IMG/VR virus record: IMGVR_UViG_3300007775_000157
Coordinates: 1 to 64,000 of that record
DNA from: a virus
Length of the DNA stretch: 64,000 bases
Direction: 5' to 3' (one strand)
How positions within the stretch are numbered: the first letter of the stretch is position 1; every line of letters begins with the position of its first letter. Shown here in pieces: positions 11,879 through 51,072 of the stretch. Below the pieces are notes generated by a model, which saw only the letters and a program-made list of their open reading frames with translations, had not been told where the DNA came from and made no database searches. The position numbers and the translations under genes were made by a program.

Positions 11879-12226
11879 GTGGCTTTAATAGGACAATCTA
11901 TAGCTGAATTTGATTTTTTCCCAGATTCACCGCCTGCAATTGTTGGAGAATTAGTTACTGGGGGAACGGTCAATATAGAACTTTGGGAAAGTGGAAGTCC
12001 GGTTTCTATATCTTCTAGTGGTTGTAGCGAGATAGGTTCTACTGGCAGATATAGCTGGTCTACAAGTGGCATACCAGTTTTAACAGCAAGTAGGCAACAA
12101 TTCCACTGGAGAATGTCGGACGGTTCCAATACCGATGAAGGTGATTTTGTGTTAATTTCTCACGAGAATAGAGATGGCGGTATGCCATCCCTAAACGACA
12201 AGTCTTCATATATCATAAAGAACTAG
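11879..12226 (+). CDS. Virion protein (SGCxxIGxTxxWxWS domain)
   Basis: Paralogous to 12235..12579 and to the C-terminus of 13146..15443. Confidence 0.6.
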   Translation: MALIGQSIAEFDFFPDSPPAIVGELVTGGTVNIELWESGSPVSISSSGCSEIGSTGRYSWSTSGIPVLTASRQQFHWRMSDGSNTDEGDFVLISHENRDGGMPSLNDKSSYIIKN

Positions 12227-12234
12227 GAGGCATT

Positions 12235-12579
12235 ATGGCTGCACAAGATTTGTCGATCAAGATCATACATAGGCTAACTCAAACTTCTGACTACAATCCA
12301 GAATTAGTAGAAGAATTTGTCAACTCGGCTTCCGGGGTTAATATTCAGGTTTGGGATATTACTAATGCACAGAATAATCTAATTGCAGTTTCAAACAGTG
12401 GTTGCTATCAGATAGGCGATACCAATCAGTGGGGCTGGTCAGTTGAAAACTTACAGTTTGATACAATGAAAAAGAAACAACACTACTTTTTTCGAATGAT
12501 TTCTAATGTTGGAGAGACACAAGATGGAGAATTCTTGATCAGCGTACCAGAAGACGGTATTCAATCTCATTCTGATTAG
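12235..12579 (+). CDS. Virion protein (SGCxxIGxTxxWxWS domain)
   Basis: VNIQVWDITN...SNSGCYQIGDTNQWGWS shared with 13146..15443. Confidence 0.6.
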   Translation: MAAQDLSIKIIHRLTQTSDYNPELVEEFVNSASGVNIQVWDITNAQNNLIAVSNSGCYQIGDTNQWGWSVENLQFDTMKKKQHYFFRMISNVGETQDGEFLISVPEDGIQSHSD

Positions 12580-12588
12580 GGGGAAAAG

Positions 12589-13131
12589 ATGGCTTGGACG
12601 ACAGACTTGGTGCTTATGACTAGAATTTTGATAAGCGATGTTACTGCTCCACAGACTTACAGTGATCAATACTTACAACAACTGGTTATTCTAGCTGGAA
12701 TTCAGGTGGATTCAGAATTTACTTTTCCTTATACCTACACGTATGATATTAGTGCTATCACAATATCTCCAGACCCAGTAACTAGTAATGATTCTAGTTT
12801 TATGGCGCTGATTCCTTTAAAGGCGGCTTGTATTTTGACTCAGGGTGAATTCAAGCAATCTCTTGGACAAGGTATCAAGGTTAGAGATGGAGATAGTGCC
12901 ATTGATACTAGCGTGAGTTTTCGTGGATATAGAGATATCTTAGAACTTGGCCCGTGTAAGTCTTATGAAAAACTAAAGTGGTCTCTCATTGCTGCTGGTT
13001 CAAGCGGTGCTGGCGTGGGCAAAGCAGTTCTTGGGCCATATAGGTCTCCAAACGCAAATTATTCTGATGCAATATCGTGGTATTACAATCAATTCCGTAC
13101 TGACATTGGTGTTAGAAGAGATAGATTTTAA
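12589..13131 (+). CDS. Head-tail adaptor/connector
   Basis: 'RILISD....YSD..L' N-terminus of gp6/gp15-like adaptors; position after capsid. Confidence 0.6.
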   Translation: MAWTTDLVLMTRILISDVTAPQTYSDQYLQQLVILAGIQVDSEFTFPYTYTYDISAITISPDPVTSNDSSFMALIPLKAACILTQGEFKQSLGQGIKVRDGDSAIDTSVSFRGYRDILELGPCKSYEKLKWSLIAAGSSGAGVGKAVLGPYRSPNANYSDAISWYYNQFRTDIGVRRDRF

Positions 13132-13145
13132 GGGAGAGGCTTCAT

Positions 13146-15443
13146 ATGTCTACGTCCGGAATACTAAGGTCAGACAATATTGTCTTTTATCATCCACTAG
13201 ATGATTTTACAGAATATACACAACCACAAACATGGGATGGTAGTGGAACATTTATTCCTGCAAGAATAGATTCTGGTGTTTCCGCACTTTCTAAGTCTAT
13301 TCTTTGGGGCACTCCCGTGTCTATAGATTCAGGAATGAATATAGGTCGAGGCGGTGCTTTATGTACTATAGACAGTAATACTGCTGTTCTTGTTGGTGTT
13401 GTCAATCCGTTCGGATCAACGCCAGTAACAGCCAAAGTAATTACTGTTTCTGGAACATCGGTTACTGTAGGCTCTGGATATACTGTCGGTTCTTCAAATG
13501 GAAGTTTTCAATTACCAAGATGCGCAACATTTGATACGGATAAGATAGTTATATTTTGGCGAAATAGCAACAACCTAAATGCTGTTGTCGGAACTGTTTC
13601 CGGTACATCAATCTCGTTTGGGACTCCTGTTGTTGGGCCGACGTATGGTCATTCCAACGGGAATATTATTTCCTTAAATAGTGTTAGTGGTATTATTACA
13701 TATGAGAGATTTAGTCCGACTTACTCAATGATGGCAGTTCCAATAACTGTTTCTGGCACAACTTTGTCTTTCGGAACAGAAACACAATTGGCAGATACTA
13801 CTGGTGATAGTGGTGGAGCATTTGCTTCTAAGCTAAATAATTCACAGGCTGTTTTGTCGTGGGATGAAGCAGATGGCTATTCTAGAACGGCGATAGCAAC
13901 AGTTTCTGGAACAGATTTGACATTGGGGCCAAAAACTGTAATAACAGATTCTGTTGAAGGTTTTGCTGGACAAACACAAGTCTTAGTTTTAGATAGTGAT
14001 AAAGTAGTTTATGGGTACAGCAGAACTACCCTTGGATTCAACACCAGAATAGGTAGCATATCTGGAACTACCATATCTATGGATGGAGAAACCCAACTAA
14101 CAGCCGGGGTAACACTTGGTGGGCTTGGGTATCTTAGCGCATCTGGTTTCGTTGCTGGATATACATACAGTACTGTCGGTAGACGGGCACAGGTTGTAGA
14201 AGTGCAAGGAACAGATATTTTCGGCGGAACAGAAACAACCACAACATATGCCGGTTCAACTGGCGGTTCAATGACGATGCTGGATGATACGAAACTATTA
14301 CACGCAACAGATAATGGAGACATAGCGGCTGGTCAATTAATTCAACTGGTCGATATTCTAGCTAGTACGCCAAATGATTATCCAAACGCATCTGGAGCAG
14401 ATAGATTAACAGTTCTTCTATGGGAACAGAATTTAACGAACCATATCTCCGAAGTAACTATTCAAAGAGATTATCTGATAGGAATGACTTCTGGATATAT
14501 TTATCTTGGAGATGCGTATTGGTCTGGCTCAAGTTTAACGGATGAAATAGCTCTTGCCAACAACGACTATCAACATTTATTTATAGCAGATTTTGAACAT
14601 GTAGCTTCTGGGATATGGAATCTAAGTACTTCCATAGATGGTTCTGGATGGGTTAACCATGGAAATCAAACATCTGGCGTACAAACAATAGTATCTGGAA
14701 CCGCTGATCCAAGATTTATGGTTCAAAGAGGTAATCCAGAGCAATGGTTTGATGAACTCGCCTTGTGGGCAGGCGACAAATCTACCTTTACTCAATTTAC
14801 AGACACAGAACTTCAAAAGGTATATGACCTTGGAATTATATTCTCTCAAACATTGCCTAAATATGATTCAACTACATATATGACATTATATATGCATGGG
14901 CCAGAACCAGCTTCTGGATCGTCTAATTTATACATAAATGGACATGGACTATTCCCTGGATCGGGAGACCTGTATATGTTCAGTTCTACTATCTATTCCG
15001 GGACAAAAGACCTGTATGTTAATGGTTCTCCCCCACAAAGTACTGGCACAACAGACTTGTACGTTTCTGGTTCTGGCGTTGCTTCTAGTGGGAGTGGTGT
15101 CGGCAGGCCACTTGATTGGTTTATTAGATATCCAGATTATAATCCACAACTACTAGGAGTATTTGATCTACCGGCTAGTTCTGTGAATATTAACGTGTGG
15201 GACATAACAAATGGACAAAATATAAAACTGTCCATATCTAATAGTGGATGTTACCATATAGGAGATACTGGTAGGTGGGGATGGTCTACCATCTACTTGT
15301 CGTCAAATACAACAAATACAAGACAATATTTGTATTCAATGGAATCTAATGTCGGAGAAACTTTCACTGGACAATTCTTCCTTGATGTACCAGAAGGGAA
15401 CAAATGGATTCATCCAAATAACCGTTCGGACTATCTTGTGTAG
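13146..15443 (+). CDS. Modular virion fibre/appendage: LamG-like domain with inserted beta-propeller, LYxxG repeats, C-terminal anchor domain
   Basis: Six or more TVSGT.....G repeats at ~48 aa spacing; homology to 42484..44214 and 12235..12579. Confidence 0.65.
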   Translation: MSTSGILRSDNIVFYHPLDDFTEYTQPQTWDGSGTFIPARIDSGVSALSKSILWGTPVSIDSGMNIGRGGALCTIDSNTAVLVGVVNPFGSTPVTAKVITVSGTSVTVGSGYTVGSSNGSFQLPRCATFDTDKIVIFWRNSNNLNAVVGTVSGTSISFGTPVVGPTYGHSNGNIISLNSVSGIITYERFSPTYSMMAVPITVSGTTLSFGTETQLADTTGDSGGAFASKLNNSQAVLSWDEADGYSRTAIATVSGTDLTLGPKTVITDSVEGFAGQTQVLVLDSDKVVYGYSRTTLGFNTRIGSISGTTISMDGETQLTAGVTLGGLGYLSASGFVAGYTYSTVGRRAQVVEVQGTDIFGGTETTTTYAGSTGGSMTMLDDTKLLHATDNGDIAAGQLIQLVDILASTPNDYPNASGADRLTVLLWEQNLTNHISEVTIQRDYLIGMTSGYIYLGDAYWSGSSLTDEIALANNDYQHLFIADFEHVASGIWNLSTSIDGSGWVNHGNQTSGVQTIVSGTADPRFMVQRGNPEQWFDELALWAGDKSTFTQFTDTELQKVYDLGIIFSQTLPKYDSTTYMTLYMHGPEPASGSSNLYINGHGLFPGSGDLYMFSSTIYSGTKDLYVNGSPPQSTGTTDLYVSGSGVASSGSGVGRPLDWFIRYPDYNPQLLGVFDLPASSVNINVWDITNGQNIKLSISNSGCYHIGDTGRWGWSTIYLSSNTTNTRQYLYSMESNVGETFTGQFFLDVPEGNKWIHPNNRSDYLV

Positions 15444-15457
15444 TGAAAGGTTGAAAC

Positions 15458-18400
15458 ATGTCATTAGCTTACTACACAGAAAAATTTCAAAGCTGGACAG
15501 CTAGTAGTCCTGGTGTTTGGGAACAGAAGGATTTATCTGCATATTTACCTTCTTCGGGAGATATTACGGCAGAAATCTTAATAGCAAACAGTAACACAGT
15601 AGATGCAACATATCCCGTTGGTGTCAGACAACTTGGTACATCTACTCCAAGGCTTGTCAATTTATTCAAATCAGAAAATGCTAGCGCATATAATTGTGTT
15701 ACTATGCATTCTAATGTTGTCAGTGGAAAAGTTGAATCTCAACTTCCTACAGGATGCACTGCATATCTCTTAGGTTATTGGACTGGCGCACAATATGTAG
15801 AAAAATTTTATAATCCATCAATTTCTACTAATTTTAATACTTGGGCCAATTTAGATTTGAGCGCTGGTGTTGGCAGTGGAGCACCAATAGTAGAAGTCAT
15901 TTGTGGTAGGCGAGAATCTGGTAGATATATCGGTGTTCGTTCTGTTGGCAATACAGCAGATAGACGCATAAAAATACATCAGGGTGGAGGACTTTCTAAT
16001 AAATACAGTTTTTTCCAGTCTTTTGTTAAGTCTAGCGGAACTACATCAACAATAGAAAGATATGTTCAGTCTTATACCAGTATTAGGGTTCCCATAATAG
16101 TAACTATTGGTTATTGGTCTACGCCCCCTGGGGATTATATAGATAGTTTCGATGAACATATATATGATACTAACAACCCTTCTATTTGGAAAAAAGCTTT
16201 AGTCTCAGGTTTATCTTCCGGAAACGTAGCGTCGTTCGGGTGTTTTAACAATGACGCCTCCAATAGTGTAATACTTGGTATGAGAGAATCTGGTAGTGTT
16301 TTATCTAGAAATCTAACTTTGTGTGACGCTGTGGCGTCTGGCAATAGCGTAGCCGCTAATTTTCATACAAATATTTTGAGCGGGGCAGAATTTGTCAGTG
16401 ATACGACAGACACTATTCAATATGATTTTACTCTTCTAGGGCATTGGGAAAATCTTATAGGACAAATTCATCCGTTAAATGATAATTGTGCTCTGTATAC
16501 AAACGGAATGAATAATAGTTCTGGTCAGTTAAATTTGTATATGAATGGTTCTCTCGGAACCTTGGTTGATACAAGTGCGGATTTTTATATTTTGGGACAC
16601 AGGTCTACACACACACAAAACTTGTACTATTCCGAAGATGCATCGAAGACACTTTTCAGGTCTGATTTACAGGGTGGAAATTCTACGGGAATAATTACAG
16701 AGGCCTCTGGGGCACCACGAAGCATATCTTACGATCATACAACTGAAAAAATTTATGCTACTTTTTCTAATCTAATAGATAATACCATAATTAAAAGCCT
16801 TAATCCCGATGGATCAAATACCGATCTTCTATATATATCAGGTTCAGTTCAAGCATTTGGAATAGCTCTACACGTAGAAAGTGGATATATTTATTTCACA
16901 AATATAGCCAAGGGGCATGTCGAGAGAATGGGCATAGAAATGCCGAGTGGAGAAACTGCCTACAACAGGACAGACATAGAGAATATAGTTGACTTCTTAA
17001 GTACCCCATTGGAAATAAAAATAGACCAAGTTAATGACAAACTTTATTACGTCGATGGAATAAGTCCGAATTGTAAAATTAATAGATGCGATCTTGATGG
17101 GTCCAATTTAGAAACCGTAGTCACGTCTGATAACCCGTCTCAATCCATTGGCGGAATAGCACTGGATATATTAGAAAATAAAATATATTTTGGAGTTTAT
17201 GGAATCGATCCAAGGATAATGGTCGCAAACATAGACGGAACAAACAAAGAAATAGTTTATAGTGGTTTCGTGGATGTAGGACGACAACCTCTTTATTTAA
17301 GTATAGATTACTTACGAAGCCAATTGTATTGGGGTGAAAGAATAGGTCATTTGGTAGAAAAGATAGACCTTGATGGCAGTAACCACGAGATAGTTATTAC
17401 TGGATCGTTTACGAACAATCGTATAGCACAAGTTTTGCCAGAGATAAAACCGACAGACATGTTTATACATGGACATCAGTCTTCGTCCGTTTCTGGCAAT
17501 CTTTATCTGTATGGCAACGAACAAATTTCTTCTTCCATAGATTTAATAATAGACGGAATAGATATTAGCGTTGACAATATTGATCTCTATGTAAAAGGTT
17601 ATACGGCAGAAAATGATCAAATAAATTTGTATATAGACGGCCATGAATCTGTTTTAAGTAATACAAATTTATATATATTAGGTGACGATTTTGCCTCTGT
17701 ATCTGGCGGTCATTTATTCGTTCATGGTTTTGATACGGGGACATCTGGATTAAATCTATATATAGATGGTATTAATAGGTCTCTGTCTAGCATGGAATTA
17801 TTTACACAAGCTTATGACATAATAAATATTTCTATCGATTTATATATTCATGCATTCAGTAAACTATCAGGATTTGTAAATTTATTAACAAAAGGTTCAG
17901 ATAGCAAGACTAATGAATGTAGTCTGTTTGTCTATGGAATAGACAGTGTCGCAAACCCAGGACAAAATCTTTATATTAATGGTAGTATTATATCAAATTC
18001 ACAAAATGACCTGTATCTATATGGGAAGAAACTTCATTCTGTGTCTGGCGATTTGTATACCCATGGAATATCTATTGAATCTGAGACTATAGATGCTTTC
18101 ATAACCGGACCAAGTGGAAATATTAATTCTTGTACATTAATTTTGTCTGGATTTGATGTAATAACTTCTCTTGTTCCAAATTTATACATACATGGTGTTG
18201 AAAGCAAAAATGACAACATTAATCTCTTTTTACTTAATTCTGGCCAGATTATTTCTATGTCTGGAAATACGTCTTTTCTTATTAATGGATATGTTGCTAA
18301 AACTCTGGTGTCCTGTCCAACGCTAGACGCAACAGCATCCATACAGATAGGCGACGAATTAATAGAAATATATCAATCTAGGATAGATGCGCTTATTAAT

Positions 18401-18838
18401 CAGATAGGTAAAAATGTCTACCTTGAATTTTCACCAATAATCGATCCTTGTCCCAACTGTACATATGACACTTTTAGAAAACGATCAACTGGAATATATA
18501 TACCTGGTGGCCCAAGACCATTCGAAAGAGGAAGAAGATGTCCGTACTGCAAAGGTGAAGGATTTTTAGAAACAGAAGTCAATAAATGTATCAAGGCTTT
18601 AATCAAATGGGGTGTTTCTGCTAATCAAAATTTTGGGTTGTCTCTTTCTGAAAGAAAAGGTGTTGTAAGATTAAAAACTCTCTTAACAGATGCGGACGAT
18701 ATAGCCAGAGCAAAAACGGCGATAGTTAATCACGACATTGTCGATCAAATGAAATTACGGGTTAAATTAATTCGTGGTCCTATACCTGCTGGCTTAAGAG
18801 AAGATAGGTATGCTCTAAGTTTTTGGAAGTTGGTGTAA
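15458..18838 (+). CDS. Neck-associated fibre: N domain, YWTD-like propeller, 14-aa LYIxG repeats, C-terminal CxxC/CxxC neck domain
   Basis: LYYSE/IYFTN/LYYVD/LYWGE blades with DLDGSN turns; CPNC...CPYCKG. Confidence 0.65.
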   Translation: MSLAYYTEKFQSWTASSPGVWEQKDLSAYLPSSGDITAEILIANSNTVDATYPVGVRQLGTSTPRLVNLFKSENASAYNCVTMHSNVVSGKVESQLPTGCTAYLLGYWTGAQYVEKFYNPSISTNFNTWANLDLSAGVGSGAPIVEVICGRRESGRYIGVRSVGNTADRRIKIHQGGGLSNKYSFFQSFVKSSGTTSTIERYVQSYTSIRVPIIVTIGYWSTPPGDYIDSFDEHIYDTNNPSIWKKALVSGLSSGNVASFGCFNNDASNSVILGMRESGSVLSRNLTLCDAVASGNSVAANFHTNILSGAEFVSDTTDTIQYDFTLLGHWENLIGQIHPLNDNCALYTNGMNNSSGQLNLYMNGSLGTLVDTSADFYILGHRSTHTQNLYYSEDASKTLFRSDLQGGNSTGIITEASGAPRSISYDHTTEKIYATFSNLIDNTIIKSLNPDGSNTDLLYISGSVQAFGIALHVESGYIYFTNIAKGHVERMGIEMPSGETAYNRTDIENIVDFLSTPLEIKIDQVNDKLYYVDGISPNCKINRCDLDGSNLETVVTSDNPSQSIGGIALDILENKIYFGVYGIDPRIMVANIDGTNKEIVYSGFVDVGRQPLYLSIDYLRSQLYWGERIGHLVEKIDLDGSNHEIVITGSFTNNRIAQVLPEIKPTDMFIHGHQSSSVSGNLYLYGNEQISSSIDLIIDGIDISVDNIDLYVKGYTAENDQINLYIDGHESVLSNTNLYILGDDFASVSGGHLFVHGFDTGTSGLNLYIDGINRSLSSMELFTQAYDIINISIDLYIHAFSKLSGFVNLLTKGSDSKTNECSLFVYGIDSVANPGQNLYINGSIISNSQNDLYLYGKKLHSVSGDLYTHGISIESETIDAFITGPSGNINSCTLILSGFDVITSLVPNLYIHGVESKNDNINLFLLNSGQIISMSGNTSFLINGYVAKTLVSCPTLDATASIQIGDELIEIYQSRIDALINQIGKNVYLEFSPIIDPCPNCTYDTFRKRSTGIYIPGGPRPFERGRRCPYCKGEGFLETEVNKCIKALIKWGVSANQNFGLSLSERKGVVRLKTLLTDADDIARAKTAIVNHDIVDQMKLRVKLIRGPIPAGLREDRYALSFWKLV

Positions 18839-18839
18839 T

Positions 18840-20912
18840 ATGGGAATAGCATACTACGAAGAATCATTTACTACTTGGCCAGCTACAGACCCAAGCGGTT
18901 GGACCACCAAAGATTTATCTGCGTATCTTCCGACATACGATGATATTACGGCAGAAATAGTCATAGCAAACTCAAATACTGCCGTTGGTAGTTATAGTGT
19001 TGGGGTTAGAACCAATGGGTCAACCTTAGACAGAAGATTCAATCTTGTTCCGGCATTATCTAACGGAGGCGCTAATTGCGCCACAATGAATGTTCAGGTT
19101 ACGAGCGGTGCCATAGAATATTATGGACCATCCGGGGTCGATTTTTACCTAGTAGGATTTTGGGCCGGTCCCAAGTATGTAGAGTTAGATACCAGACTTT
19201 CTCCTAGCGGGACAAATTCTTGGCTTACAATGAATCTGTCGGATGGCGGTGTTCCTAGTGGTGCATTGACAGAAATAATGTGTGCCCAGGGATGGGGTGG
19301 TCTGTTGATGGGTAATCGATCTATCGGTAATACGATAGATAGACGTATCCGCATGGAAATAGGCAGTGATTCTTTCGAGAGATACAATACTTGGACATCC
19401 TTTGTTCAGAGTAGCGGCTATAATGCTGCGATAGAACACTATGTTCAAACATACATTTTGAACAATAAATTTTATATATTAGGATACTGGGAAGTTCCTC
19501 CCGGAGATTTTACTGATGTCTTTCAATTGGACGAAGGAAATCCAACCTCTAACAATACATGGGAGGGCGTAGACATTTCCGGTATTCCGTCTGGAGCAGT
19601 TTGCTCTTTTGTTATGACAAATAGCGACATATCGACAAGTCGTGTATTAGGCATTCGGGAATCAGGAACATCTCTTGAAAGAAAAATAGACATAAGATTT
19701 GCCAATAATGCAACATATAAACTCGCTTGTTGTATGCATGTCATATCTAATTCTCCGATAGAAGCATTTTCAGAGGCAGCTACTGGTGTTAACGATGATT
19801 TCACACTAGCTGGATATTGGGATAATTTTGCTACCGTTCCATTACAAACTACTGTGTTTGATAATGCCGATCTGTTTATTGAAGGCATGTCTATCGGGAT
19901 ATCACAACAGGTTGACCTATATATGGACGGACTTGGGTCTAGTTCTGGCATAGTCAATCTTTTCACAATAAGTCATGATACAAATAATGATAATATTAAT
20001 GCTTATGTTTCTGGATCAGTTCCAGCAGTATCTTCAAATATGAACATGTTCGTTTCTGGCCTTGGATTATTTTCTGACACTCTTAATTTGTTTGTAAATG
20101 GAGACATAATCAGGGCGAATAATATTGATTTATATCTTGATGGATTTAGTTCTAGTTCTGGCCTTACGAATATTTTTATAGAAGGTTCTGAGACACTAAA
20201 CGACAGTCTTTCTATGTATGTGTCCGGATCAGTCAATATGTCGTCTGGTGACTTGAACCTGTATTTATGCGGAGGTTCCTTTGCGTTTGCGTCTGAAAAT
20301 CTGTTTATAAGTGGTCCATTCTCCACTTCTGTATCTGGAACTTGTGACTTAATCGTTAATGGGATAGTTCCGATTCCAGGAGTCTCTTGTCCAATTTTAG
20401 ACTCCACCGCTTCAATACAAATAAAATCTAGTTTAATACAAATCTATCAGTCTAGAATAGATGCACTCATTAACCAGCTTGGGAAAAATGTTTATCTTGA
20501 ATTTGATCCAATAATAGAACCTTGTCCAAATTGTGAATTTGATACAATTAGACACAGATCAAAAGGTATATATATAGTTGGTGGTCCTGTTCCTTTTGAG
20601 AGAGGAAGAAGGTGTCCTTACTGTAAAGGAAATGGTTTGTTGGAAACTCCTGTAAATAAGTGTATAAAATGTTTGCTTAAGTGGAACCCTAGAGATGCTG
20701 AAAATCATGGAATATCTCTGTCCCAAGGGAAGGGTATCGTTCGTCTGAAAACGTATCTAACAAACGCAGACGATTTATCTAGAGCAAGAACGGCATTAGT
20801 TAATCATGATATTGTGGATCAAATGAAATTAAAAGTTAAGCTATTGGAAGGCCCTATTCCCGTAGGGTTAAGAGAAGACAGATATTGTATAAGTTTTTGG
20901 GAATTGTTATAA
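18840..20912 (+). CDS. Paralogue of 15458..18838 lacking the propeller
   Basis: Shared KDLSAYLP..DITAEI.IANSNT and IYQSRIDALINQ.GKNVYLEF...CPNC...CPYCKG...GLREDRY. Confidence 0.65.
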   Translation: MGIAYYEESFTTWPATDPSGWTTKDLSAYLPTYDDITAEIVIANSNTAVGSYSVGVRTNGSTLDRRFNLVPALSNGGANCATMNVQVTSGAIEYYGPSGVDFYLVGFWAGPKYVELDTRLSPSGTNSWLTMNLSDGGVPSGALTEIMCAQGWGGLLMGNRSIGNTIDRRIRMEIGSDSFERYNTWTSFVQSSGYNAAIEHYVQTYILNNKFYILGYWEVPPGDFTDVFQLDEGNPTSNNTWEGVDISGIPSGAVCSFVMTNSDISTSRVLGIRESGTSLERKIDIRFANNATYKLACCMHVISNSPIEAFSEAATGVNDDFTLAGYWDNFATVPLQTTVFDNADLFIEGMSIGISQQVDLYMDGLGSSSGIVNLFTISHDTNNDNINAYVSGSVPAVSSNMNMFVSGLGLFSDTLNLFVNGDIIRANNIDLYLDGFSSSSGLTNIFIEGSETLNDSLSMYVSGSVNMSSGDLNLYLCGGSFAFASENLFISGPFSTSVSGTCDLIVNGIVPIPGVSCPILDSTASIQIKSSLIQIYQSRIDALINQLGKNVYLEFDPIIEPCPNCEFDTIRHRSKGIYIVGGPVPFERGRRCPYCKGNGLLETPVNKCIKCLLKWNPRDAENHGISLSQGKGIVRLKTYLTNADDLSRARTALVNHDIVDQMKLKVKLLEGPIPVGLREDRYCISFWELL

Positions 20913-22542: not shown

Positions 22543-22543
22543 T

Positions 22544-22554
22544 TGGTGTATAAT
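22544..22554 (+). promoter_or_regulatory. Putative late promoter motif TGGTGTATAAT
   Basis: Motif upstream of major tail protein. Confidence 0.7.
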
Positions 22555-23729: not shown

Positions 23730-23753
23730 AGATCATAATATAAGCAGATTATG

Positions 23754-38206: not shown

Positions 38207-41200
38207 GTGGCTTTTATTATAGATGCAAATTTAAGAATTCAAAAGGTCTTAGGGCTCCAACAGGTCAAACAACAGCTTGCCAATATTCAAGTTGGTGGAA
38301 TTGGACAAATAAATAAGGTTGCTAGCGGCCTTGGACTTGTAAGCAAAAACGCTTCTGGTGCTGCTGAAAAAATCTTTTCTGCATCCAAGGCCACAAAGAA
38401 TCTTGGTTCGGCTGCTGGAAAAACTGGTTCACAATTAAAAGATGGTGCCAATAAAGCGAAAAATTTTGGAGACCAAATCTTTCTAGCGGGAAAAAGATAT
38501 GCCGCCTTCTTGAGCGCAACGGTTGGTGCCTTTAAGGCATTTCAATTAATTTCAGAAGGTGCAAAATCTGTTGTTGAATTTGATCAAGCACTAGTTTCCT
38601 TGGCCCAAATAATAGGTACTACCGTTGACAATTTAGGCAATCTACGTCAACAATTTTTAGACTTATCTGTTGCTACAGGTACCAGCGCCTCTGATATTGC
38701 TAATGCGGCTAAGTTGTTGGCTCAGGCCGGATTTAGAGGGAGAGAATTAACAGAAGCTGTTGAGCAATTAGCTAAGACTCCGCTAACACCAATCTTCGAA
38801 AGTATGGAACAAGCTGTTGCTGGTGCGGTCGCTGCACTAGAGCAATTTTCTGATGAAGGATTAACTGTCGAAACCGTCTTCGATAAACTAACAAAAGTAT
38901 CTAATAATTATGCCGCATCTTTCCCAGATATTATAGAAGGTATTAGGAGAGGTGGTTCTGCGTTTCAGGCCATAGGTGGTAATCTAGACGAATTTATCGC
39001 AGCTTTTACAACCATACGATCTGTAACACAAGAAAGCGCATCTGCCGTAGGAACATCGCTCAAGACGATATCTAGTCGTTTGGCTGATCCAAAAATTATT
39101 GATTTTTTACAGACTAAAAATATCAGGTTAATAGAGGAGGGTCAATTTGTTGGACCAATCGAAGCAATCAGAAGAATTGGAGAAGGTCTTGACAAAGTAA
39201 AGACCACCCAAGAGGCGGTAAACATAGCAACGCAGCTTGGTGGTAGAAGACAGATTAGTCGTTTTCTAGCTTTAGCTAAAAATGTTGATACTTTTAACGA
39301 AATTTTAGGAGTTTCTGAAACTTCTTTTGGTGAGTTTGATCGAGTTGCAGAACAGGGATTACAAGCTGTCAGCAAACAAATTGATGTTTTAATTTCTCAG
39401 GCGAAGAAATTAGCTATAGATTTGGGTTCGGATTTATTTTTGCCTGTTATTAAAGGCCTAAACACAGCAGCCACTGCTGCAATAGGGCTTCTTGACGCAT
39501 TAAAACCAATTATTCCAGCTTTGGGAACTATCGGTGCCGCCTTCGCCGGAGGTGCTCTTTTTCGTGGTTTGAGTGCTTTTGGCGGATCACAGATAGGTCG
39601 CTTAGCTGGTCCAGCAGCTTTTTCTGCTGCTGGTGGTCGTAGAGCGGGTGTTACTGCTGGTATCACAGCCAGTCCTTTTGCTCAAGCCGGACTATTAATT
39701 GCTGCATCAGAAGCCGCTGCTTCATTGACCAAAACAGCTTTGGGAGCAGATTCATTTACTGCCACGTTAATAACATCCATAGCCAGCATTACTGCTGCCA
39801 TAGCTTTGTTTCGAAATCAAACAATCGCGCAATTTGCTGCTGGTGGCGGAATTTTTACAAGTCTAGGTAAAAAGGGTATACTTGGTGGTCTAGCTGGTTC
39901 TCTTGCTACGATTGGTACATTAGCTGTTCCTTTAGCCTTATCTCAAGCGAATAAAAGCGCCAAAGAACTCTCCGATAAAATAATTGACAGTGCAATACAA
40001 TCAATATCAGAAATACAAATAGATAAAACTGATCCGAAATCAGTGACTGATGGAGTTGGCAAACTTTTTGACGTTATCACAAATAGTGTAGATGAATTGA
40101 CTAACGGAGTAGATATCAAGCAAAATCCAAGTATATTGAAATTTTTTGAAGGTGTTTCTAGGGCTATTGGAAATGCTTTAGAAGGGGATTTTTCAGGGCT
40201 CGTCAGTAGGGGCGGATTAACAAGAAGAAACGTAGATAGTCAAATACAAAAATTACTCAAACAAAGTTCTCAAATTACCCAGATATTGATTGACAATATT
40301 GCAGCAGACCTTGGTGATTCCGCGCAACAAATAGCAAGACCGGGAAGGGTTCAGTTAATACAGCAGGGCGTACAAAATGGATTAACAGTTGAAGAATCTG
40401 CGCAATTTGCTTCTTCTATAATAGAATCTGTTGGAGGAATAGATGCATGGACAGAGAAAATTAGGAAAAGTGCTGAGACTATTGCCAAAGAGACCAAAGA
40501 AAGAGAAAAGGTTTCTAATCTTGTAAAGAACTTTCTCCCAAATAGATTAGTTGGACAACTTTCGCAGTTCTCAAAAGCTGTTGATAAGACAGTTAACAGT
40601 ATCAATAATTCTGCCCAATTGTTTCAGTCTCAAATTGCTGAGATAGCCGGTGGTATTAGAGCACCTTCATTTGATTTTCAATTTAATGATTTGCAGGTCA
40701 AAGATTTGATCCAGACTGGTGGTCTTAATGATTTATTTCAATTTACGCCAGATATACCTAAGTTTGTTGGAGCCTTTTCTGAGATAGAAAACTTGTTAGA
40801 TCAATTCGTTTTGAGTGTTAGCAATGTTTCTGTTCCTAATGTAGACATATCTTCTACTATAGATCAATTTTTTGCTTCTCAGAGCAATGTTCCCCAAACT
40901 GTGAGGGATAATTTTGAAGAATTTTTCACCACAATAGGCAATGATCTGGCCAGCGTATCTACTGGTAAATTTATAGACGCCAACAAGATTAAGGAAAGAT
41001 TCAGAGAAGAGTTTCAAGATATTGGTGCTGGCGCAACAGATTCTGTTGTTCAGTCCGTGAGAGGATTTTTGCAAGCGACGTTTAAGCAAATAGAAGATGA
41101 AGCCAATAGATTAGCAACGGTGAGACAATTTGAAATTGCTGCACCTGTGCGTCCAGAATCTCAAGCCGCTTTCCTTGAGCAACAATTGCGAAGGGTTGGT

Positions 41201-42484
41201 ATTACTGCTCCTTCTAGAACCCAAGGGAATCAGGTAAGAGGAACTATAGAAGAGCTAGACCTTATTAGAAGAGAATTGGAAAGTCGTTCTGGTCCAGGCA
41301 ATATTCCTGGCAGACTACCAACTCCTGGAGTAGGCTTTTTCAGAGGAAGAGACCAAAGACTTGTCGATATTGCAGGAAACGAAAGAGTTAGACAAGAGGT
41401 TAGGGATCAGTTTAAGGGTATCATAACAGAATCGTCTGCTCTGAAACAAAGTCTTGCAGAATTAAAGCCAGGGACAGAGGGTTTTATAGAAGCCTCTAAC
41501 AGGGCGAGAGAGTTGGCACGGTCAACAGTGGAATTACAGACGACCCTAGAAGCATTAGACAAAGCTACTGGTCAAGCCCTAAAGTCAGAACTAGAAACTT
41601 TGTCAAGGCGACAACAGTTTGAAACGGCTCAGACTAGAGCTACTCTGGCAGAACAAGTAAGAACAGGAGCGATCGATCCGCTACAAGCGGAACGTCGACT
41701 TTTCGACTTATCAAAAGAACAACAAAAAGAACAACTGGCTGTTCAGGATAAGTTTGATGCCATTGTTGAGAAAGATAATTCTCTTAGAGTTGATTTAGCT
41801 AAGCAAGTTAGCGAGAACACAAAGACTCAACAGGAAATTATAGCAGATTTTGGAACGTCAGCAAGTTTATTCGCTGATTCTACAAAAATACAAGCCACCT
41901 CTATACAATTAATGCAGCGATCTATTATTGATTTTGGACAGAGTGTGGTAGATTTTAGCAATTTTAATTCAATAGGACCGACAACAAGTCAAGGTAATTC
42001 GGCAGAAATAATTCCTTCTCAGATTAGGTCTGGCGGGATAACCGTACAGCAAGGATTTGATGAGTTTAACAGACTGATAAAAGAAGGTAATACAAGCCAG
42101 CAACAAATGACAGATATTTTAGAAGCCATATATGAGCGTCAAGATCAGATTAAATCTACTAGCGAAGAATCAAACACAATACAAAGAGACCAAGAGAAAA
42201 ATGCTGCCGTTGGAGATAAAATTAGTCAATTAAATGAAAGCCTAGATAATCTTAGAAATGTATTGTCGTCCCCCAACGAACTAAGGATTGTATCTGATCA
42301 AAGGGTTGTACTTGACTTGTCTACTCTGCCAGATGATATTGTCAATGAAGTTAAGCCATTGTTTGAAGAGGCTGGCATAGTCATTGCCAAAACAGTTACC
42401 AGACAAGCTATGGAAAGTCTGGCCGCTAAAACTGATTCTGAAGTATCTATTTCTGCCGGAAGTGTAGCCCAGGAGCTTGCATAA
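38207..42484 (+). CDS. Tail tape measure protein
   Basis: 1425 aa, Ala/Gly/Gln-rich helical; TP901-type core (LAQAGF, SASAVGTSLKTISSRL); hydrophobic mid segment. Confidence 0.9.
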   Translation: MAFIIDANLRIQKVLGLQQVKQQLANIQVGGIGQINKVASGLGLVSKNASGAAEKIFSASKATKNLGSAAGKTGSQLKDGANKAKNFGDQIFLAGKRYAAFLSATVGAFKAFQLISEGAKSVVEFDQALVSLAQIIGTTVDNLGNLRQQFLDLSVATGTSASDIANAAKLLAQAGFRGRELTEAVEQLAKTPLTPIFESMEQAVAGAVAALEQFSDEGLTVETVFDKLTKVSNNYAASFPDIIEGIRRGGSAFQAIGGNLDEFIAAFTTIRSVTQESASAVGTSLKTISSRLADPKIIDFLQTKNIRLIEEGQFVGPIEAIRRIGEGLDKVKTTQEAVNIATQLGGRRQISRFLALAKNVDTFNEILGVSETSFGEFDRVAEQGLQAVSKQIDVLISQAKKLAIDLGSDLFLPVIKGLNTAATAAIGLLDALKPIIPALGTIGAAFAGGALFRGLSAFGGSQIGRLAGPAAFSAAGGRRAGVTAGITASPFAQAGLLIAASEAAASLTKTALGADSFTATLITSIASITAAIALFRNQTIAQFAAGGGIFTSLGKKGILGGLAGSLATIGTLAVPLALSQANKSAKELSDKIIDSAIQSISEIQIDKTDPKSVTDGVGKLFDVITNSVDELTNGVDIKQNPSILKFFEGVSRAIGNALEGDFSGLVSRGGLTRRNVDSQIQKLLKQSSQITQILIDNIAADLGDSAQQIARPGRVQLIQQGVQNGLTVEESAQFASSIIESVGGIDAWTEKIRKSAETIAKETKEREKVSNLVKNFLPNRLVGQLSQFSKAVDKTVNSINNSAQLFQSQIAEIAGGIRAPSFDFQFNDLQVKDLIQTGGLNDLFQFTPDIPKFVGAFSEIENLLDQFVLSVSNVSVPNVDISSTIDQFFASQSNVPQTVRDNFEEFFTTIGNDLASVSTGKFIDANKIKERFREEFQDIGAGATDSVVQSVRGFLQATFKQIEDEANRLATVRQFEIAAPVRPESQAAFLEQQLRRVGITAPSRTQGNQVRGTIEELDLIRRELESRSGPGNIPGRLPTPGVGFFRGRDQRLVDIAGNERVRQEVRDQFKGIITESSALKQSLAELKPGTEGFIEASNRARELARSTVELQTTLEALDKATGQALKSELETLSRRQQFETAQTRATLAEQVRTGAIDPLQAERRLFDLSKEQQKEQLAVQDKFDAIVEKDNSLRVDLAKQVSENTKTQQEIIADFGTSASLFADSTKIQATSIQLMQRSIIDFGQSVVDFSNFNSIGPTTSQGNSAEIIPSQIRSGGITVQQGFDEFNRLIKEGNTSQQQMTDILEAIYERQDQIKSTSEESNTIQRDQEKNAAVGDKISQLNESLDNLRNVLSSPNELRIVSDQRVVLDLSTLPDDIVNEVKPLFEEAGIVIAKTVTRQAMESLAAKTDSEVSISAGSVAQELA

Positions 42485-44214
42485 TGTCTCTTTTACGCCA
42501 TGATAATGTAACATTCTATCATCCACTAGATGATTATACAGAATACATACAAAATCATGTTTGGAATGATAGCCAGGCTAACGTAGGTATTAGCGGTGGT
42601 GTCATAGTAAGCGGTATGATTAATACTGGCGGGGCTGTTTACGCTACGCTTGGAGAGTCTGTTTCTGCCGGTGGATATAGTGGCGTTGCTGGAGCCACAA
42701 GATTAACCACATGTTTTTGGGCTAGTGGATTTTATCAAAACGGTTCAGATACAAGAATTGTGCTGATTGGGTATGGATCATCTGCCACAAATGGCGACAC
42801 CAATATTTTAAGATTAACAAAAAGTTCATCAAACACATGTGACTTCAGACTGACCATTGGTACCGCTGGAGTTGGTACAAAAAATATCCCCACCAAACCC
42901 AGTGATAACGATAAACACTTTGTTGTTCTGGACGCCGAGGACGAAGGCAGCGTCTGGAGATATCGTATCAGTTTCGATGGCGCAGATTGGCAGGACTTAG
43001 GAACACTTTCTAGTGCAGCTAGTCCAACAAGTGCTAACTCTGTTATAATTCATCTTTTTGACAATGGTTCGGTTAGTTCTGTTATAGACGAAGTTGTATT
43101 CTGGAGTGGTGCCAGTCTATTCTCCGCTCAAGAATTATCAAATCTATATGAATTGGCCAACACGTATGGTCGATCTATGGATGAATATTCTACCACATTC
43201 GGTACTTTAACTAGCGGTAGTATAGATCAGTTCACAAAAGGGTACGATGTGTCTTCTGGCAATTTACCCCTATATATTCCAGGACAAAAGGAAGTAGATT
43301 CCATTGCTCTTTTTGCGTCTGGTAGTCCAACTTCTATATCCGATACAATAGATTTGTATATGAGCGGCTCTGTATCTACGTCGTCTTCTGGTGTAGATTT
43401 GTTTATTTTACCTCCTGTGCTATCGAGTGGCAATGTCGATTTATATGAATATGGTTTTGATATTGCTTCGGGAGAAACTACCCTTTATATAGCTGGTTTA
43501 TTCCCAAGTTTTGACGCTTTTGTTTCGGTTGATAGTAATACCCCAACCACTAGTGCTAATCTTTTTATCTATGGTTTTGCAAGTGGTTCGCCAACTCCAA
43601 GTTATGTCGCAGACTCGGTTTCTCTATATATCAATGATTCTGGAAACTTAGTCACAGTCAATAAGAATTTTTCTGGTTTTGTGCATGTAGATGATCCCAT
43701 TTTAACATCATATAGTGGAATTTGGTCTTCTTTTGTTAAGGTTGGAAATAGTTCTGACAAAAACTGTACTTTTTATATGTATGGACATGCTTCCGGAGAA
43801 TCACCTCATGGAACCTTAAATACAAACGATAAGAATTTGTTCGTCCGTGGAAGGTCTGCGTTCTCTGGAGACGAAGGGTTGCTTTTCGACAATTACATTG
43901 GGTTGTTTAGTGATTTTTCGTCCTTTGCCAAAGTTCATCTTGGAACTTCTGGATTATCGAATTTATATGTGTCTGGCTATATTCCAATAGAACCACCATC
44001 TGGATATCTTGATTTTTATGTCTTTGGAATTAGTGGGATTACGTTTGATTCTATCGACTATTATATCTCTGGGAAGGATGTTCCAAGTGGAGATTGTGAT
44101 TTGTTTATGTTCGGCATACAAGGGATACCTTCTGGAAGTGTTCCATTTTATCTCGCCGTAACTACTCTTGGTGATTTAACTGGTTCTGATACTCTGTATA
44201 CTCATGGATTCTAA
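42484..44214 (+). CDS. Virion protein: LamG-like N domain plus LYxxG repeat stalk
   Basis: FYHPLDDYTEY...VIDEVVFW...ELSNLY; paralogous to 13146..15443. Confidence 0.6.
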   Translation: MSLLRHDNVTFYHPLDDYTEYIQNHVWNDSQANVGISGGVIVSGMINTGGAVYATLGESVSAGGYSGVAGATRLTTCFWASGFYQNGSDTRIVLIGYGSSATNGDTNILRLTKSSSNTCDFRLTIGTAGVGTKNIPTKPSDNDKHFVVLDAEDEGSVWRYRISFDGADWQDLGTLSSAASPTSANSVIIHLFDNGSVSSVIDEVVFWSGASLFSAQELSNLYELANTYGRSMDEYSTTFGTLTSGSIDQFTKGYDVSSGNLPLYIPGQKEVDSIALFASGSPTSISDTIDLYMSGSVSTSSSGVDLFILPPVLSSGNVDLYEYGFDIASGETTLYIAGLFPSFDAFVSVDSNTPTTSANLFIYGFASGSPTPSYVADSVSLYINDSGNLVTVNKNFSGFVHVDDPILTSYSGIWSSFVKVGNSSDKNCTFYMYGHASGESPHGTLNTNDKNLFVRGRSAFSGDEGLLFDNYIGLFSDFSSFAKVHLGTSGLSNLYVSGYIPIEPPSGYLDFYVFGISGITFDSIDYYISGKDVPSGDCDLFMFGIQGIPSGSVPFYLAVTTLGDLTGSDTLYTHGF

Positions 44215-44228
44215 TAAGAGGTGGCAAA

Positions 44229-48622: not shown

Positions 48623-49720
48623 GTGGTTGATATGACAAGGACTGGACCAAATCAAGATGTAAATGATCCCACAACGATCATAGAACTCGCTTATGAATAT
48701 AATGCCACAAGTCAATCCCTTGGAGACTTTTTGGCTCAATCAATTGCAGAAGACCCCAGTGTCACTGGTAGTCCAATTGTAGATGTATCTATCCCGCTAA
48801 AGATAGAAGATGGTTCTAGTGTCTTATTGTACGGTAGTGATATTACATACGATGGGACATATCATTACGACCAAGATGTGGTTGCAAAAGCGAATATTTT
48901 AACCTATGTAGGTCTAGCTGAAAGATTTCGAGATTATTGGGAATCACTGAACGCCGTTATAGATTCTTTGTCCGATTTCACTACTATCTCTGAAACCGGA
49001 ATAAGTCCTGAGATATATGGATCGGGCATTAGTGTTTTTCCATACACGAGAACATATGGAACTTCTGGTGGAATTTCATACACCTTGAATTCTTTTACAC
49101 ACTCACCAACTTCATCCTTAGAAACACCAGAATGGTACGGTTCTGGAGACACAAACTATAATCAAGCAACTTATCCACAGCTTTTATCCGAATTACAATT
49201 GATAGAAGTGACAAGAACTTTCGCCATAGAAGATACCTGGGAAACCAATTATAGATTTGAATTATTGGTCGACGACAGTGGATCGCAAAGAAGTGCGAGT
49301 CTTTCATGTCCTTTGACAAATGCTTATACTTCAGTTCTTGAAAACCAATATGTACAAATCTACAATTCTACTACTTCTGCCATAAATATCAGCTTGTCGG
49401 CAGATGTAACAATAAGCACCGATGATATATGTAGTTTAGGCGTAGGTTCTTTTGGAGAAATAGACGACCTAAATATTTATCCAGACCCACTTTTGGGTGA
49501 TAAAAGTTTATTATCGTCCTATATGTCATCTTCTAAAACAACCTCTGGCGCAGACAGCCTAAGCCACACGCGAAACATCTCTATTCCCGCTGGCAAATCT
49601 GCGTTTATAGGAGTCGGTGCTTCTGTCAATTTTGCCGCTTTTGTTGGGACATACGCTATCGTGGATATAGTTGTCACATTAAATGGGTATACATTTTCAT
49701 ATTCAGGTAATATCGCTTAA
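48623..49720 (+). CDS. Putative tail tip protein
   Basis: Acidic Ser/Thr-rich protein in tail operon. Confidence 0.5.
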   Translation: MVDMTRTGPNQDVNDPTTIIELAYEYNATSQSLGDFLAQSIAEDPSVTGSPIVDVSIPLKIEDGSSVLLYGSDITYDGTYHYDQDVVAKANILTYVGLAERFRDYWESLNAVIDSLSDFTTISETGISPEIYGSGISVFPYTRTYGTSGGISYTLNSFTHSPTSSLETPEWYGSGDTNYNQATYPQLLSELQLIEVTRTFAIEDTWETNYRFELLVDDSGSQRSASLSCPLTNAYTSVLENQYVQIYNSTTSAINISLSADVTISTDDICSLGVGSFGEIDDLNIYPDPLLGDKSLLSSYMSSSKTTSGADSLSHTRNISIPAGKSAFIGVGASVNFAAFVGTYAIVDIVVTLNGYTFSYSGNIA

Positions 49721-49721
49721 A

Positions 49722-49732
49722 ATGTGTATAAT
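49722..49732 (+). promoter_or_regulatory. Putative late promoter motif ATGTGTATAAT
   Basis: Motif upstream of 49753. Confidence 0.65.
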
Positions 49733-49752
49733 AAAGACGAAAGGCAATACTT

Positions 49753-50367
49753 ATGTCAGAAATTAATATCTATTTCGCTGAAACAGATGTCAGAATAGAA
49801 ACTGGTGAAGCTCTTGGCTTTTTTGGTCCAGAAGGCTATGGAGACCCATTGTCTATTGGAGAATATAATGGAAGAACCTTTGTAACAAGTACAGATGGCG
49901 ACACTCCGTACGAAGAATGTGATAACTGTAAGAAGATATCCTCTTCTGGAGTTGTTATCGGCCAGACAGGAAATGGTATCAATCTAAGGAATTTGCCGAA
50001 TTACCTGGCTACCATAAATATAAGGTTCACTCATCCACAGGAGGTTCTTGTTCAAAACGCTAGATTGATAGCTTTTGATGGGAATGATCAGGCAGTCGCT
50101 CCTGTAGGCCTAGACGTGTACGGTGCGGAGATTATACATACCAGCAGGCTTCAGAGCGACACGGGCGTAGGAGACACTTCCTGGCTTAAAATGGAGGGGT
50201 CCGGAGTACAACTGGATTTAGTCGATTCTCCAGCTACATCTGGCATCAGTCCTCTTGGACCAGCCAGTCTAGATACGAGACATGACTGGTTCGTAGCTTT
50301 GTCTGTCACGCCTACTACTCCTGGGGATAAGACGTTCAGTTTTAGGGCAGAACTTGAATATGTGTAA
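49753..50367 (+). CDS. Virion protein, paralogue of 50437..51072
   Basis: Shared LGFFG, TF.T, T.N.RFT, QNA.L, RHDW.V.LS..P...G.K, LEY. Confidence 0.6.
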   Translation: MSEINIYFAETDVRIETGEALGFFGPEGYGDPLSIGEYNGRTFVTSTDGDTPYEECDNCKKISSSGVVIGQTGNGINLRNLPNYLATINIRFTHPQEVLVQNARLIAFDGNDQAVAPVGLDVYGAEIIHTSRLQSDTGVGDTSWLKMEGSGVQLDLVDSPATSGISPLGPASLDTRHDWFVALSVTPTTPGDKTFSFRAELEYV

Positions 50368-50380
50368 ATAAGTTTGAATT

Positions 50381-50390
50381 TGGTGTATAA
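50381..50390 (+). promoter_or_regulatory. Putative late promoter motif TGGTGTATAA
   Basis: Motif upstream of 50437. Confidence 0.7.
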
Positions 50391-50436
50391 AAAGTTGGAT
50401 TTTTTAACTTTTAAGCTATAAAAGGGAGGTGAAAAA

Positions 50437-51072
50437 ATGGCAGCAGCAATTACATTTTATGCCGGTCAGGGCGGTGGAGTTTGGCAGAATCTGAATTCAT
50501 CTGGTCTTGGATTTTTCGGTGCATCTTTTGGGACTTCGGTTCAAGTTGGGCAGTATCAAGATAGCACTTTCATTACCACCAGCAATGGTTCTTCTCAAGG
50601 TCCACAGGCTACTAACTGTAAATTTGAAACTCCTTCGGGTGTCATCATAAATGGAGATTCGTCGATTCAGCCGTCCGCTGTACCGATCAACTCTGGAACG
50701 ATGAACGTCAGGTTTACGTTTGATTCGGCAGTTCAGACACAAAATGCGGAACTGAGGATTTTTGATAGGTCTAATATCAATACTGGCGCAACAGGCGTCA
50801 CGACCAAGGTTTTGCAAGTCTGTAATGGTGGGTCTGGAGTTAGTTCTAGTGGAACGGCAATCGCTCCAGGTAGTCATTCCGGTTGGTTTACCCCGGTAGG
50901 TTCTAGCGTTACTGTCCCGTTGCTTAGCAGCGCTGGTACTAGTGGTACGAGCATTTCGGGTGTTGCAACCCAGGACGATCGTCACGATTGGTACGTTTGT
51001 CTATCAGCAAGTCCGGATAGTATTGGAGCTAAAGAGGCTTTTGGTCTCTACGTACAATTAGAATATCTCTAA
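50437..51072 (+). CDS. Putatively abundant virion protein, paralogue of 49753..50367
   Basis: GGGAGGTG RBS; own promoter and terminator; Ser/Gly-rich. Confidence 0.6.
   Translation: MAAAITFYAGQGGGVWQNLNSSGLGFFGASFGTSVQVGQYQDSTFITTSNGSSQGPQATNCKFETPSGVIINGDSSIQPSAVPINSGTMNVRFTFDSAVQTQNAELRIFDRSNINTGATGVTTKVLQVCNGGSGVSSSGTAIAPGSHSGWFTPVGSSVTVPLLSSAGTSGTSISGVATQDDRHDWYVCLSASPDSIGAKEAFGLYVQLEYL

Follow-up and report, generated by a model that had tools for sequence, protein, structure and literature searches.

The question raised by this locus is why serine is so often followed by glycine in the tail fibre proteins of a phage that also encodes its own set of sugar genes. The locus is a window of 64,000 nucleotides (bases 1-64000 of the 77.5-kb IMG/VR viral contig IMGVR_UViG_3300007775_000157, CheckV completeness 46%) from an uncultured phage with a genome of ~170 kb. 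At its centre are four large fibre proteins, g13146, g15458, g18840 and g42484, each of which is designated here, like the other proteins of the window, by the first coordinate of its gene. An earlier note made from the letters alone had remarked on an abundance of the dipeptide Ser-Gly (SG) in exposed virion proteins and had proposed that SG is the sequon of a phage-encoded glycan coat. We find that the SG excess is real, that it is coded at the protein level and that it belongs to a modular fibre family that lacks a Pfam or PHROG model and is newly delineated here. The excess is probably a structural turn motif that has been multiplied by repeats and paralogy within this one family, while the glycosyltransferase (GT) genes of the phage are a separate, real feature.

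Ser-Gly pairs are in excess in four large fibre proteins

The manual counts of the earlier note proved exact for g42484, for the Ser/Gly-rich protein 50437, for the tail-tube-like protein 22614 and for the internal tape measure protein, the last of which has an observed-to-expected ratio (O/E) for SG of 0.5 (Table 1). Fibres g13146, g15458 and g18840 are SG-rich as the note had described them, with composition-corrected SG O/E values of 2.70, 2.31 and 2.47, respectively, and the value for g42484 is 2.68. Thus the SG O/E of the large fibres spans 2.3-2.7 with shuffle z values of 4.2-6.3, while the reverse pair Gly-Ser (GS) remains at expectation in the same four proteins (O/E 0.9-1.45). When the four fibres are pooled, 95 SG are observed versus 37.4 expected (z 10.4), and SG ranks top among all 400 dipeptides; in the same pool NG, DG and AG are close to expectation (O/E near 1), TG and GG fall below it and SS is not enriched. 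The enrichment reported for exposed virion proteins consequently stands for the four large fibres, but is only marginal for 22614 (p 0.014-0.027 with a local null and 0.011 with a whole-protein shuffle) and for 50437 (p 0.036-0.10 and 0.035), neither of which is significant across 67 proteins. The remaining 63 proteins of the window have a pooled SG O/E of 1.14, the non-structural proteins have 0.90, and a pool of the tape measure, portal, 8293, major capsid protein, 35748, 44229 and 45896 has 0.76.

An excess of this kind could reflect chance, a by-product of composition or a motif at the DNA level, and the large fibres are indeed rich in the two residues, with Ser and Gly each making up 10-15% of the total. 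However, the excess is not only strong globally but also persists when residues are shuffled locally in blocks of 10, 20 or 40 (z 3.4-6.1), which rules out compositional patchiness, and GS, SS and GG are not enriched. Both families of serine codons, TCN and AGY, are used in SG pairs at about their usual proportions, and the pairs are encoded by many hexamers of which none is preferred. It is therefore the protein, and not a DNA motif, on which the bias acts, and a codon artefact is ruled out on the same grounds. Together with the recurrence of the bias across 149 homologues, these results refute an origin by chance, composition or DNA motif, to which we assign practically no probability. The residues flanking SG are also characteristic, with A, V, P, I or T before the pair and T, S, N or V after it, a depletion of Asp at positions -3 to -1 and a strong depletion of K and R beside the pair.

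Nor is the excess shared by phage fibres in general. In T4, T5, T7, lambda and Che8, the SG O/E of fibre, baseplate and tail proteins ranges over 0.3-2.3 and z never exceeds 2.4; T4 gp34/37/12, T5 pb1 and T7 gp17 lie at 0.4-1.7, and the pooled value for 28 reference tail proteins is 1.21. A mild bias of SG over GS may be common in some proteomes. For example, lambda open reading frames (ORFs) of 250 amino acids (aa) or more contain 66 SG versus 36 GS (SG O/E 1.86 in J, 1.95 in H and about 2.7 in C and E), yet lambda encodes no GT. Two hypothetical proteins of Che8, gp57 (39191-40054, + strand) and gp59 (40410-41216, + strand), have the opposite bias, with 12 GS versus 1 SG and 10 GS versus 1 SG.

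The fibres constitute a modular protein family

The fibre proteins are of receptor-binding type, and they have neither a Pfam or PHROG family of their own nor sequence relatives in the PDB. Their recognizable parts are an FYHP(L)D N-terminus, a propeller whose blade hairpins read V-S-G-T, a concanavalin A (ConA)-like domain and a strict 14-residue stalk repeat. In g13146 the order of modules is the FYHP N-terminus, a beta-propeller with blades of ~51 aa, a ConA-like sandwich, the 14-aa stalk repeats and a C-terminal module. Each propeller blade carries one copy of a hairpin motif (Table 1) that is near-invariant among homologues and whose serines (S102, S152, S203, S254 and S306) are spaced by ~51 aa. 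Fibre g42484 has the FYHP N-terminus and the jelly-roll domain in common with g13146 and is composed of a ConA-like lectin-fold domain (aa 1-245) followed by 14-aa repeats up to its C-terminus. Fibres g15458 and g18840 are paralogues that share a conserved N-domain of 340 aa and a Cys-rich C-terminal domain; between these g15458 has a YWTD/LDL-receptor-B propeller and 14-aa repeats (~aa 341-400 and 661-940), and g18840 has 14-aa repeats only. Members of the family also swap modules of receptor-binding type, with YWTD/LDL-receptor-B in g15458 and RCC1, SGL, CBM96 and NHL in homologues. The Cys-rich C-terminal domain of ~185 aa has two Cys pairs (CPNC ... CPYCKG), is possibly a metal-binding anchor or a chaperone module, and contains zero SG and zero GS.

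The 14-residue tandem repeat was found via LY, the second-ranked dipeptide, and is present in all four fibres. From 759 units in homologues we obtained the consensus G-[HY]-[DE]-x-x-[STN]-[GDN]-[SND]-[IL]-[DN]-L-[FY]-[IV]-x, with spacings that are strictly 14, 28 or 42. At the polar turn of this unit SG is more frequent than any other pair; it occupies 26% of the 759 units and alternates with NN, TD, ND, SD and TG. The repeat is not the only cause of the bias, as repeat zones carry just 23 of the 95 SG and an O/E of ~2.5 persists outside of them.

An exhaustive search of 1.8 billion representatives returned 196 relatives of g42484, and the results that follow concern the 149 listed homologues, each of which represents a cluster at 50% identity and from which the query is excluded. 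Their SG O/E is 2.44 (z above 50), compared with 1.21 for GS, 0.77 for TG, 0.90 for NG and 1.02 for DG; SG outnumbers GS in 94% of them, and a quarter of all their Gly residues are preceded by Ser. Since the bias is shared by these homologues, it is a trait of the family. Among 50,697 records of cultured phages, neither DNA nor protein comparison gave a homologue of g42484, and the family was found in one clade only, which consists of environmental phages of ~165-180 kb.

Conservation and predicted placement of the Ser-Gly sites

Alignment of three domain families established that SG pairs are concentrated at fixed positions. Columns that are at least 70% conserved hold 31%, 51% and 33% of SG occurrences versus 0-9% of GS occurrences, and for other dipeptides the share is mostly 0%, but reaches 45% for DG in one domain family. 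Outside of conserved columns SG is on a par with GS (36 vs 46, 81 vs 75 and 12 vs 9 in the three families), so that the whole of the excess resides in conserved columns. Within conserved SG columns Gly is retained in 123 of 124 and 240 of 277 cases and Ser in 109 of 124 and 208 of 277, and where Ser is replaced it is mainly by Asp (21), Thr (15) or Asn (11). All three of these are turn-capping residues, and neither Asp nor Asn can accept an O-glycan. This pattern fits a capped tight turn and not a Ser that is under selection as an acceptor. Given the duplication of blades, stalk units and entire genes, roughly ten conserved sites, and not ninety-five, are independent.

Models from AlphaFold2 (AF2) are confident for much of the family. 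Residues 1-243 of g42484 have a predicted local distance difference test score (pLDDT) >90 and are modelled as a ConA-like lectin sandwich, for which Foldseek returned calreticulin lectin domains, lectin-like jelly rolls and the cyanophage Pan3 tailspike (E about 1e-6). The model of g13146 has a pLDDT of 79.8, and its residues 5-573 (about 80-95) are predicted to fold into a beta-propeller with a lectin-like sandwich after it; Foldseek matches for this protein combine a propeller with a lectin domain, as in trans-sialidase and GH43. The ConA-like assignment of the g42484 N-terminal domain and the g13146 middle domain is thus a predicted, fold-level one, with no Pfam family at threshold. In the AF2 secondary structure of all five blades, the motif Ser closes a strand and the two residues Gly-Thr form the loop that leads into the next strand. 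Over the confident regions of g13146 as a whole, 8 of 16 two-residue loops involve SG, and 7 of 20 SG sites are placed where a strand ends and a loop begins versus 9% of all positions, a ~4-fold over-representation.

From the excess, the conservation pattern and the placement in the models we infer that turn geometry is the reason for the bias. The modules in question, namely the propeller of ~51-aa blades, the ConA-like sandwich, the 340-aa N-domain and the 14-residue stalk, would all be beta structures with a few fixed SG positions each. At such a position Ser would close a beta-strand and Gly would open a tight turn, often of two residues, that needs the backbone freedom of glycine. The blade would be read as V-S at the strand end, G-T in the loop and x thereafter, and comparable sites would lie at strand ends of the ConA-like domain and at the turn of the 14-residue repeat. 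In general turn statistics a two-residue hairpin loop of Gly followed by Asn, Ser or Thr is of type II', which the blade motif fits. About ten ancestral SG sites may in this way have grown to 17-28 copies per protein by duplication of blades, 14-aa units and genes, and the SG statistics would be inflated because these parts were duplicated many times.

Glycan genes and genomic setting

The window opens with a late module on the + strand, in which a GT-like gene, gmd and the large terminase are followed by an FkbM methyltransferase gene, a weak match to a major capsid protein, the three very large proteins g13146, g15458 and g18840, the tail-tube-like protein, an 11-kb island with RNA ligases, the tape measure and five more tail proteins. 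This structural operon also holds a small ORF, placed after the capsid gene and before the fibres, with matches to a helix-turn-helix (HTH) domain and to sigma-70 region 4. From 51.8 kb onward the coding strand changes, and replication genes are mixed with sugar genes. DNA polymerase III alpha is divided over two genes, a part with finger, HhH and OB domains and a part with PHP and NTPase domains, with ~8 kb of sugar genes between them, which code for a GT32-like protein, a TylF methyltransferase, a kinase and a GatZ-like protein.

The earlier note had credited the window with gmd, at least six GT-like genes and two methyltransferases. While gmd is present, Pfam supports five GT-like genes and one methyltransferase within the window; a sixth GT (GT32/Caps_synth-like) and a second methyltransferase (TylF) are located just past it on the same contig. 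Both methyltransferases are of sugar type, and genes of a nucleotide-sugar-like pathway are present as well. By a crude scan of hydropathy, all 22 glycan-related proteins look soluble, and a single marginal hydrophobic segment occurs among them; the 77.5 kb encode neither a polytopic membrane protein nor one of the flippase, polymerase or lipid-carrier type. The unannotated ORFs of the cluster have no PHROG match, and the GTs have no useful relatives among cultured phages. Eight related IMG/VR contigs could be assessed, and all of them have the GT cluster in syntenic position; a further relative, G005, has homologues of gmd and GTs on a contig that ends before the cluster. The fibre family and the GT cluster were found together only in the one clade, every assessable member of which carries both, and this co-occurrence is a single phylogenetic event without statistical weight.

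A hydroxymethylase of the thymidylate-synthase type, which would point to glycosylation of DNA bases, is missing from four complete relatives. In addition, GT g58103 (566 aa) is free of inteins in this phage, while its homologue in relative G002 (L035:4279-7206, - strand, 975 aa) has one intein and that in relative G008 (L034:887-4843, + strand, 1318 aa) apparently has two, with Hint and LAGLIDADG domains, which is unusual for a GT gene. Genes that harbour inteins are typically conserved and important. That the enzymes glycosylate a cytoplasmic acceptor stepwise, with virion proteins as candidates, is plausible because the GT set is soluble, the hydroxymethylase is lacking, the cluster is syntenic and inteins are found in a GT homologue.

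Table 1. Location of the fibre genes, their modules and other features discussed in the text (window coordinates unless indicated otherwise)
Feature	Position	Strand	Remarks
GT-like gene	2..643	+	Pfam; just upstream of terminase
gmd, GDP-mannose 4,6-dehydratase	901..1968	+	E 1.6e-116; just upstream of terminase, late strand
FkbM-family methyltransferase	7173..7811	+	TIGR01444, E 2.8e-15; between portal and capsid-assembly genes
Small ORF	11478..11861	+	HTH and sigma-70 region 4 matches
g13146, 765 aa	13146..15443	+	28 SG, 15 GS
Propeller blades of g13146, aa 96-345	13431..14180	+	one [VI]-S-G-T-x-[ILV]-x-x-G per blade
14-residue stalk repeats of g13146, aa 576-660	14871..15125	+	AF2 monomer pLDDT <50
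g15458, 1126 aa	15458..18838	+	25 SG, 10 GS
YWTD/LDL-receptor-B propeller of g15458	16658-17437	+	
Cys-rich C-terminal domain of g15458	18278-18838	+	
g18840, 690 aa	18840..20912	+	17 SG, 8 GS; paralogue of g15458
14-aa repeats of g18840, aa 341-505	19860-20354	+	
Cys-rich C-terminal domain of g18840	20355-20912	+	
Tail-tube-like protein 22614, 371 aa	22614..23729	+	9 SG, 7 GS; look-alikes carry Phage_tube_2 or Phi812 tail-tube families (lead only)
Tape measure, 1425 aa	38207..42484	+	PF10145, E 3.5e-23; internal control; 5 SG vs 10 expected
g42484, 576 aa	42484..44214	+	25 SG, 10 GS
14-aa repeats of g42484, aa 246-576	43219-44211	+	
Ser/Gly-rich protein 50437, 211 aa	50437..51072	+	8 SG, 4 GS; no Pfam or PHROG match
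Replication genes mixed with GT2, three GT4-type GT1 genes and unannotated ORFs	from 51.8 kb	-	
Glycosyltransferase cluster	53872..59803	-	GT2, three GT1, two unannotated ORFs; soluble-looking
GT2	53872-54669	-	Pfam
GT4-type GT1 genes, three	55881-56900, 56900-58090, 58103-59803	-	Pfam
DNA polymerase III alpha, gene in window	60934-62784	-	
DNA polymerase III alpha, gene beyond window	contig 71290-73635	-	
GT32/Caps_synth-like gene, TylF O-methyltransferase, kinase, GatZ-like gene	beyond window, same contig		

Weighing the alternative readings

A structural turn motif is favoured by the distribution of the bias, which is missing from the tape measure, portal, major capsid protein, 44229, 45896 and the Cys-rich C-terminal domains, and by the surplus of SG over GS in lambda, a phage that has no GT. 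Several observations nevertheless weigh against it. The preference is unusually Ser-specific, and the textbook turn pairs NG and DG are not enriched in the family (0.90 and 1.02). As about six different modules are biased while T4, T5 and T7 fibres are not, generic beta-turn rules fail to predict the bias. The placement of SG was read from AF2 secondary structure only, and many SG sites are in the 14-aa repeat region, where the pLDDT of the monomer is below 50, a value that would be expected for an oligomeric stalk. Because the tips of hairpins tend to be exposed, a Ser with a structural role could serve as an acceptor too. Chemical stability would offer another reason for Ser at such positions. 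Asn-Gly deamidates and Asp-Gly isomerises quickly, and SG might be a stable stand-in for these pairs at tight turns that was selected for durability of the virion outside of the cell. Compared with 28 reference tail proteins (NG 1.23, DG 1.24), the family has lower NG and DG and doubled SG, and Ser, Asp and Asn interchange in the same columns, which is weak support for such a replacement. However, NG and DG are not below expectation, their shortfall of ~400 pairs is much smaller than the SG surplus of ~1850, and this surplus is also at the cost of GG, PG, TG and AG, so we judge the stability explanation quite improbable. We consider it very improbable that the conserved SG pairs serve ligand binding or catalysis in carbohydrate-binding modules of the propeller or lectin type. 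The folds resemble sialidase and GH43 propellers with lectin domains and carbohydrate-binding jelly rolls, and homologues carry CBM96, RCC1 and YWTD modules, but SG occurs in every blade as well as in the stalk repeats, whereas ligand binding should call for no more than one or a few such sites.

The proposal of the earlier note, that SG marks Ser-specific O-glycosylation sites at which soluble phage GTs decorate exposed fibre turns in the cytoplasm before assembly, has more in its favour, although we still regard it as unlikely. The bias has a direction and is specific to Ser, TG being depleted; K and R are depleted beside SG, and the internal tape measure and portal are unbiased. The set of GT, gmd and methyltransferase genes is soluble, is kept in all assessable relatives and is partly located in the late operon, and complete relatives lack the hydroxymethylase for sugar modification of DNA. 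The nearest precedent is TibC, which modifies Ser but not Thr and for which a mapped acceptor, Ser-313, is within QNSGGAV (PMC4358343). Against a sequon, Gly is more conserved than the presumed acceptor Ser, which is swapped for Asp or Asn, and non-conserved SG is not in excess, which implies that there is no selection for site density. The major capsid protein, 44229 and 45896 are unbiased, the major capsid and major tail proteins of Che8 are not SG-rich, and co-occurrence of the GTs with the family reduces to the one phylogenetic event described above. A GT9/BAHT-type enzyme is also missing, as PF01075 had no match above cut-off in the five clade genomes scanned (G000, G001, G002, G004 and G006). 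Thus the identification of SG as a glycosylation sequon is not upheld, with SG in conserved strand-to-turn sites, Gly conserved above Ser, and capsid and portal without bias; beta-turn repeats, which the note had itself named, along with an equal bias in GT-lacking phages, as counting against a sequon, appear in the form of these sites to account for the bias. Of the phage-encoded, sequon-directed glycan coat there remains the glycan gene system, which offers circumstantial support for a coat, while the part that makes SG its sequon is unsupported. The target of the GT set may be cytoplasmic, possibly virion proteins, with nothing that ties the GTs to SG. The structural and sequon readings need not be mutually exclusive, and because Ser-313 of TibA is itself a Ser-Gly, a structural turn Ser can also be an acceptor. 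It is conceivable, but doubtful, that SG turns are at once structural and the acceptors of Ser-specific cytoplasmic hyperglycosylation by GT4/GT2-type enzymes, with fibres coated with glycans of methylated deoxy-sugars. If the structural reading is correct, then a very significant dipeptide bias (z >10, and >50 across the homologues) can stem from ~ten conserved turn positions multiplied by repeats and paralogy and is not to be taken for a sequon unless chemistry shows it to be one. If instead a sequon is involved, then phage virion glycosylation would extend beyond the mycobacteriophages and would have a testable acceptor rule.

Comparison with known systems

Chloroviruses, which are giant viruses of eukaryotes, encode gmd, GTs and sugar methyltransferases and have N-linked glycans on their capsid protein. 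The phage resembles them in that virus-encoded gmd, several soluble GTs and methyltransferases suggest host-independent synthesis of glycans in the cytoplasm. It differs in being a phage for which any acceptor is putative, as compared to the N-glycans of the chlorovirus capsid. The acceptor of the eukaryotic proteoglycan xylosyltransferase is Ser-Gly flanked by acidic residues. The likeness to this system is limited to the dipeptide, as the flanks in the fibres are aliphatic or hydroxylic with Asp depleted at -3 to -1, and no related enzyme was seen.

Among phages, virions of the mycobacteriophage Che8 and its relatives are reportedly O-glycosylated, with the major capsid and major tail proteins as the targets. 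Papers that cite Freeman et al. 2023 refer to Che8 as glycosylating its capsid protein, the one target that they name. Both phages encode their own GTs, and in both virion proteins are the proposed targets. Unlike the Che8-type system, the capsid protein is unbiased in the phage described here and the motif is confined to one fibre family; the Che8 major capsid and major tail proteins, gp6 and gp11, have no SG bias either (O/E 1.36 and 0.69).

A closer parallel is provided by bacterial autotransporter heptosylation, in which TibC heptosylates Ser, but not Thr, in the beta-helix adhesin TibA at sites that include the Ser-Gly at Ser-313 (PMC4358343). The fibres would have in common with TibA and AIDA-I, the substrates of TibC and Aah, a long, repetitive and exposed beta-structure with many turn serines, and the enzymes are in each case cytoplasmic and soluble. 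They differ in that the phage GTs are of GT4 and GT2 type with no GT9/BAHT enzyme in the clade, that the 14-residue repeat is unrelated in sequence, and that the phage system is known from genes only.

With regard to the propeller, hairpin motifs that recur in other propeller proteins invite comparison, for instance S-x-D-x-G-x-T-W, the sialidase Asp-box. In sequence, the blade motif [VI]-S-G-T-x-[ILV]-x-x-G departs from the Asp-box and has no Asp-box/BNR match in Pfam, and SG also dominates the 14-aa stalk and other domains. What the two do share is one motif per blade, an invariant turn Gly and a residue of Ser/Asp type before it, in a protein, g13146, whose modelled architecture is trans-sialidase-like.

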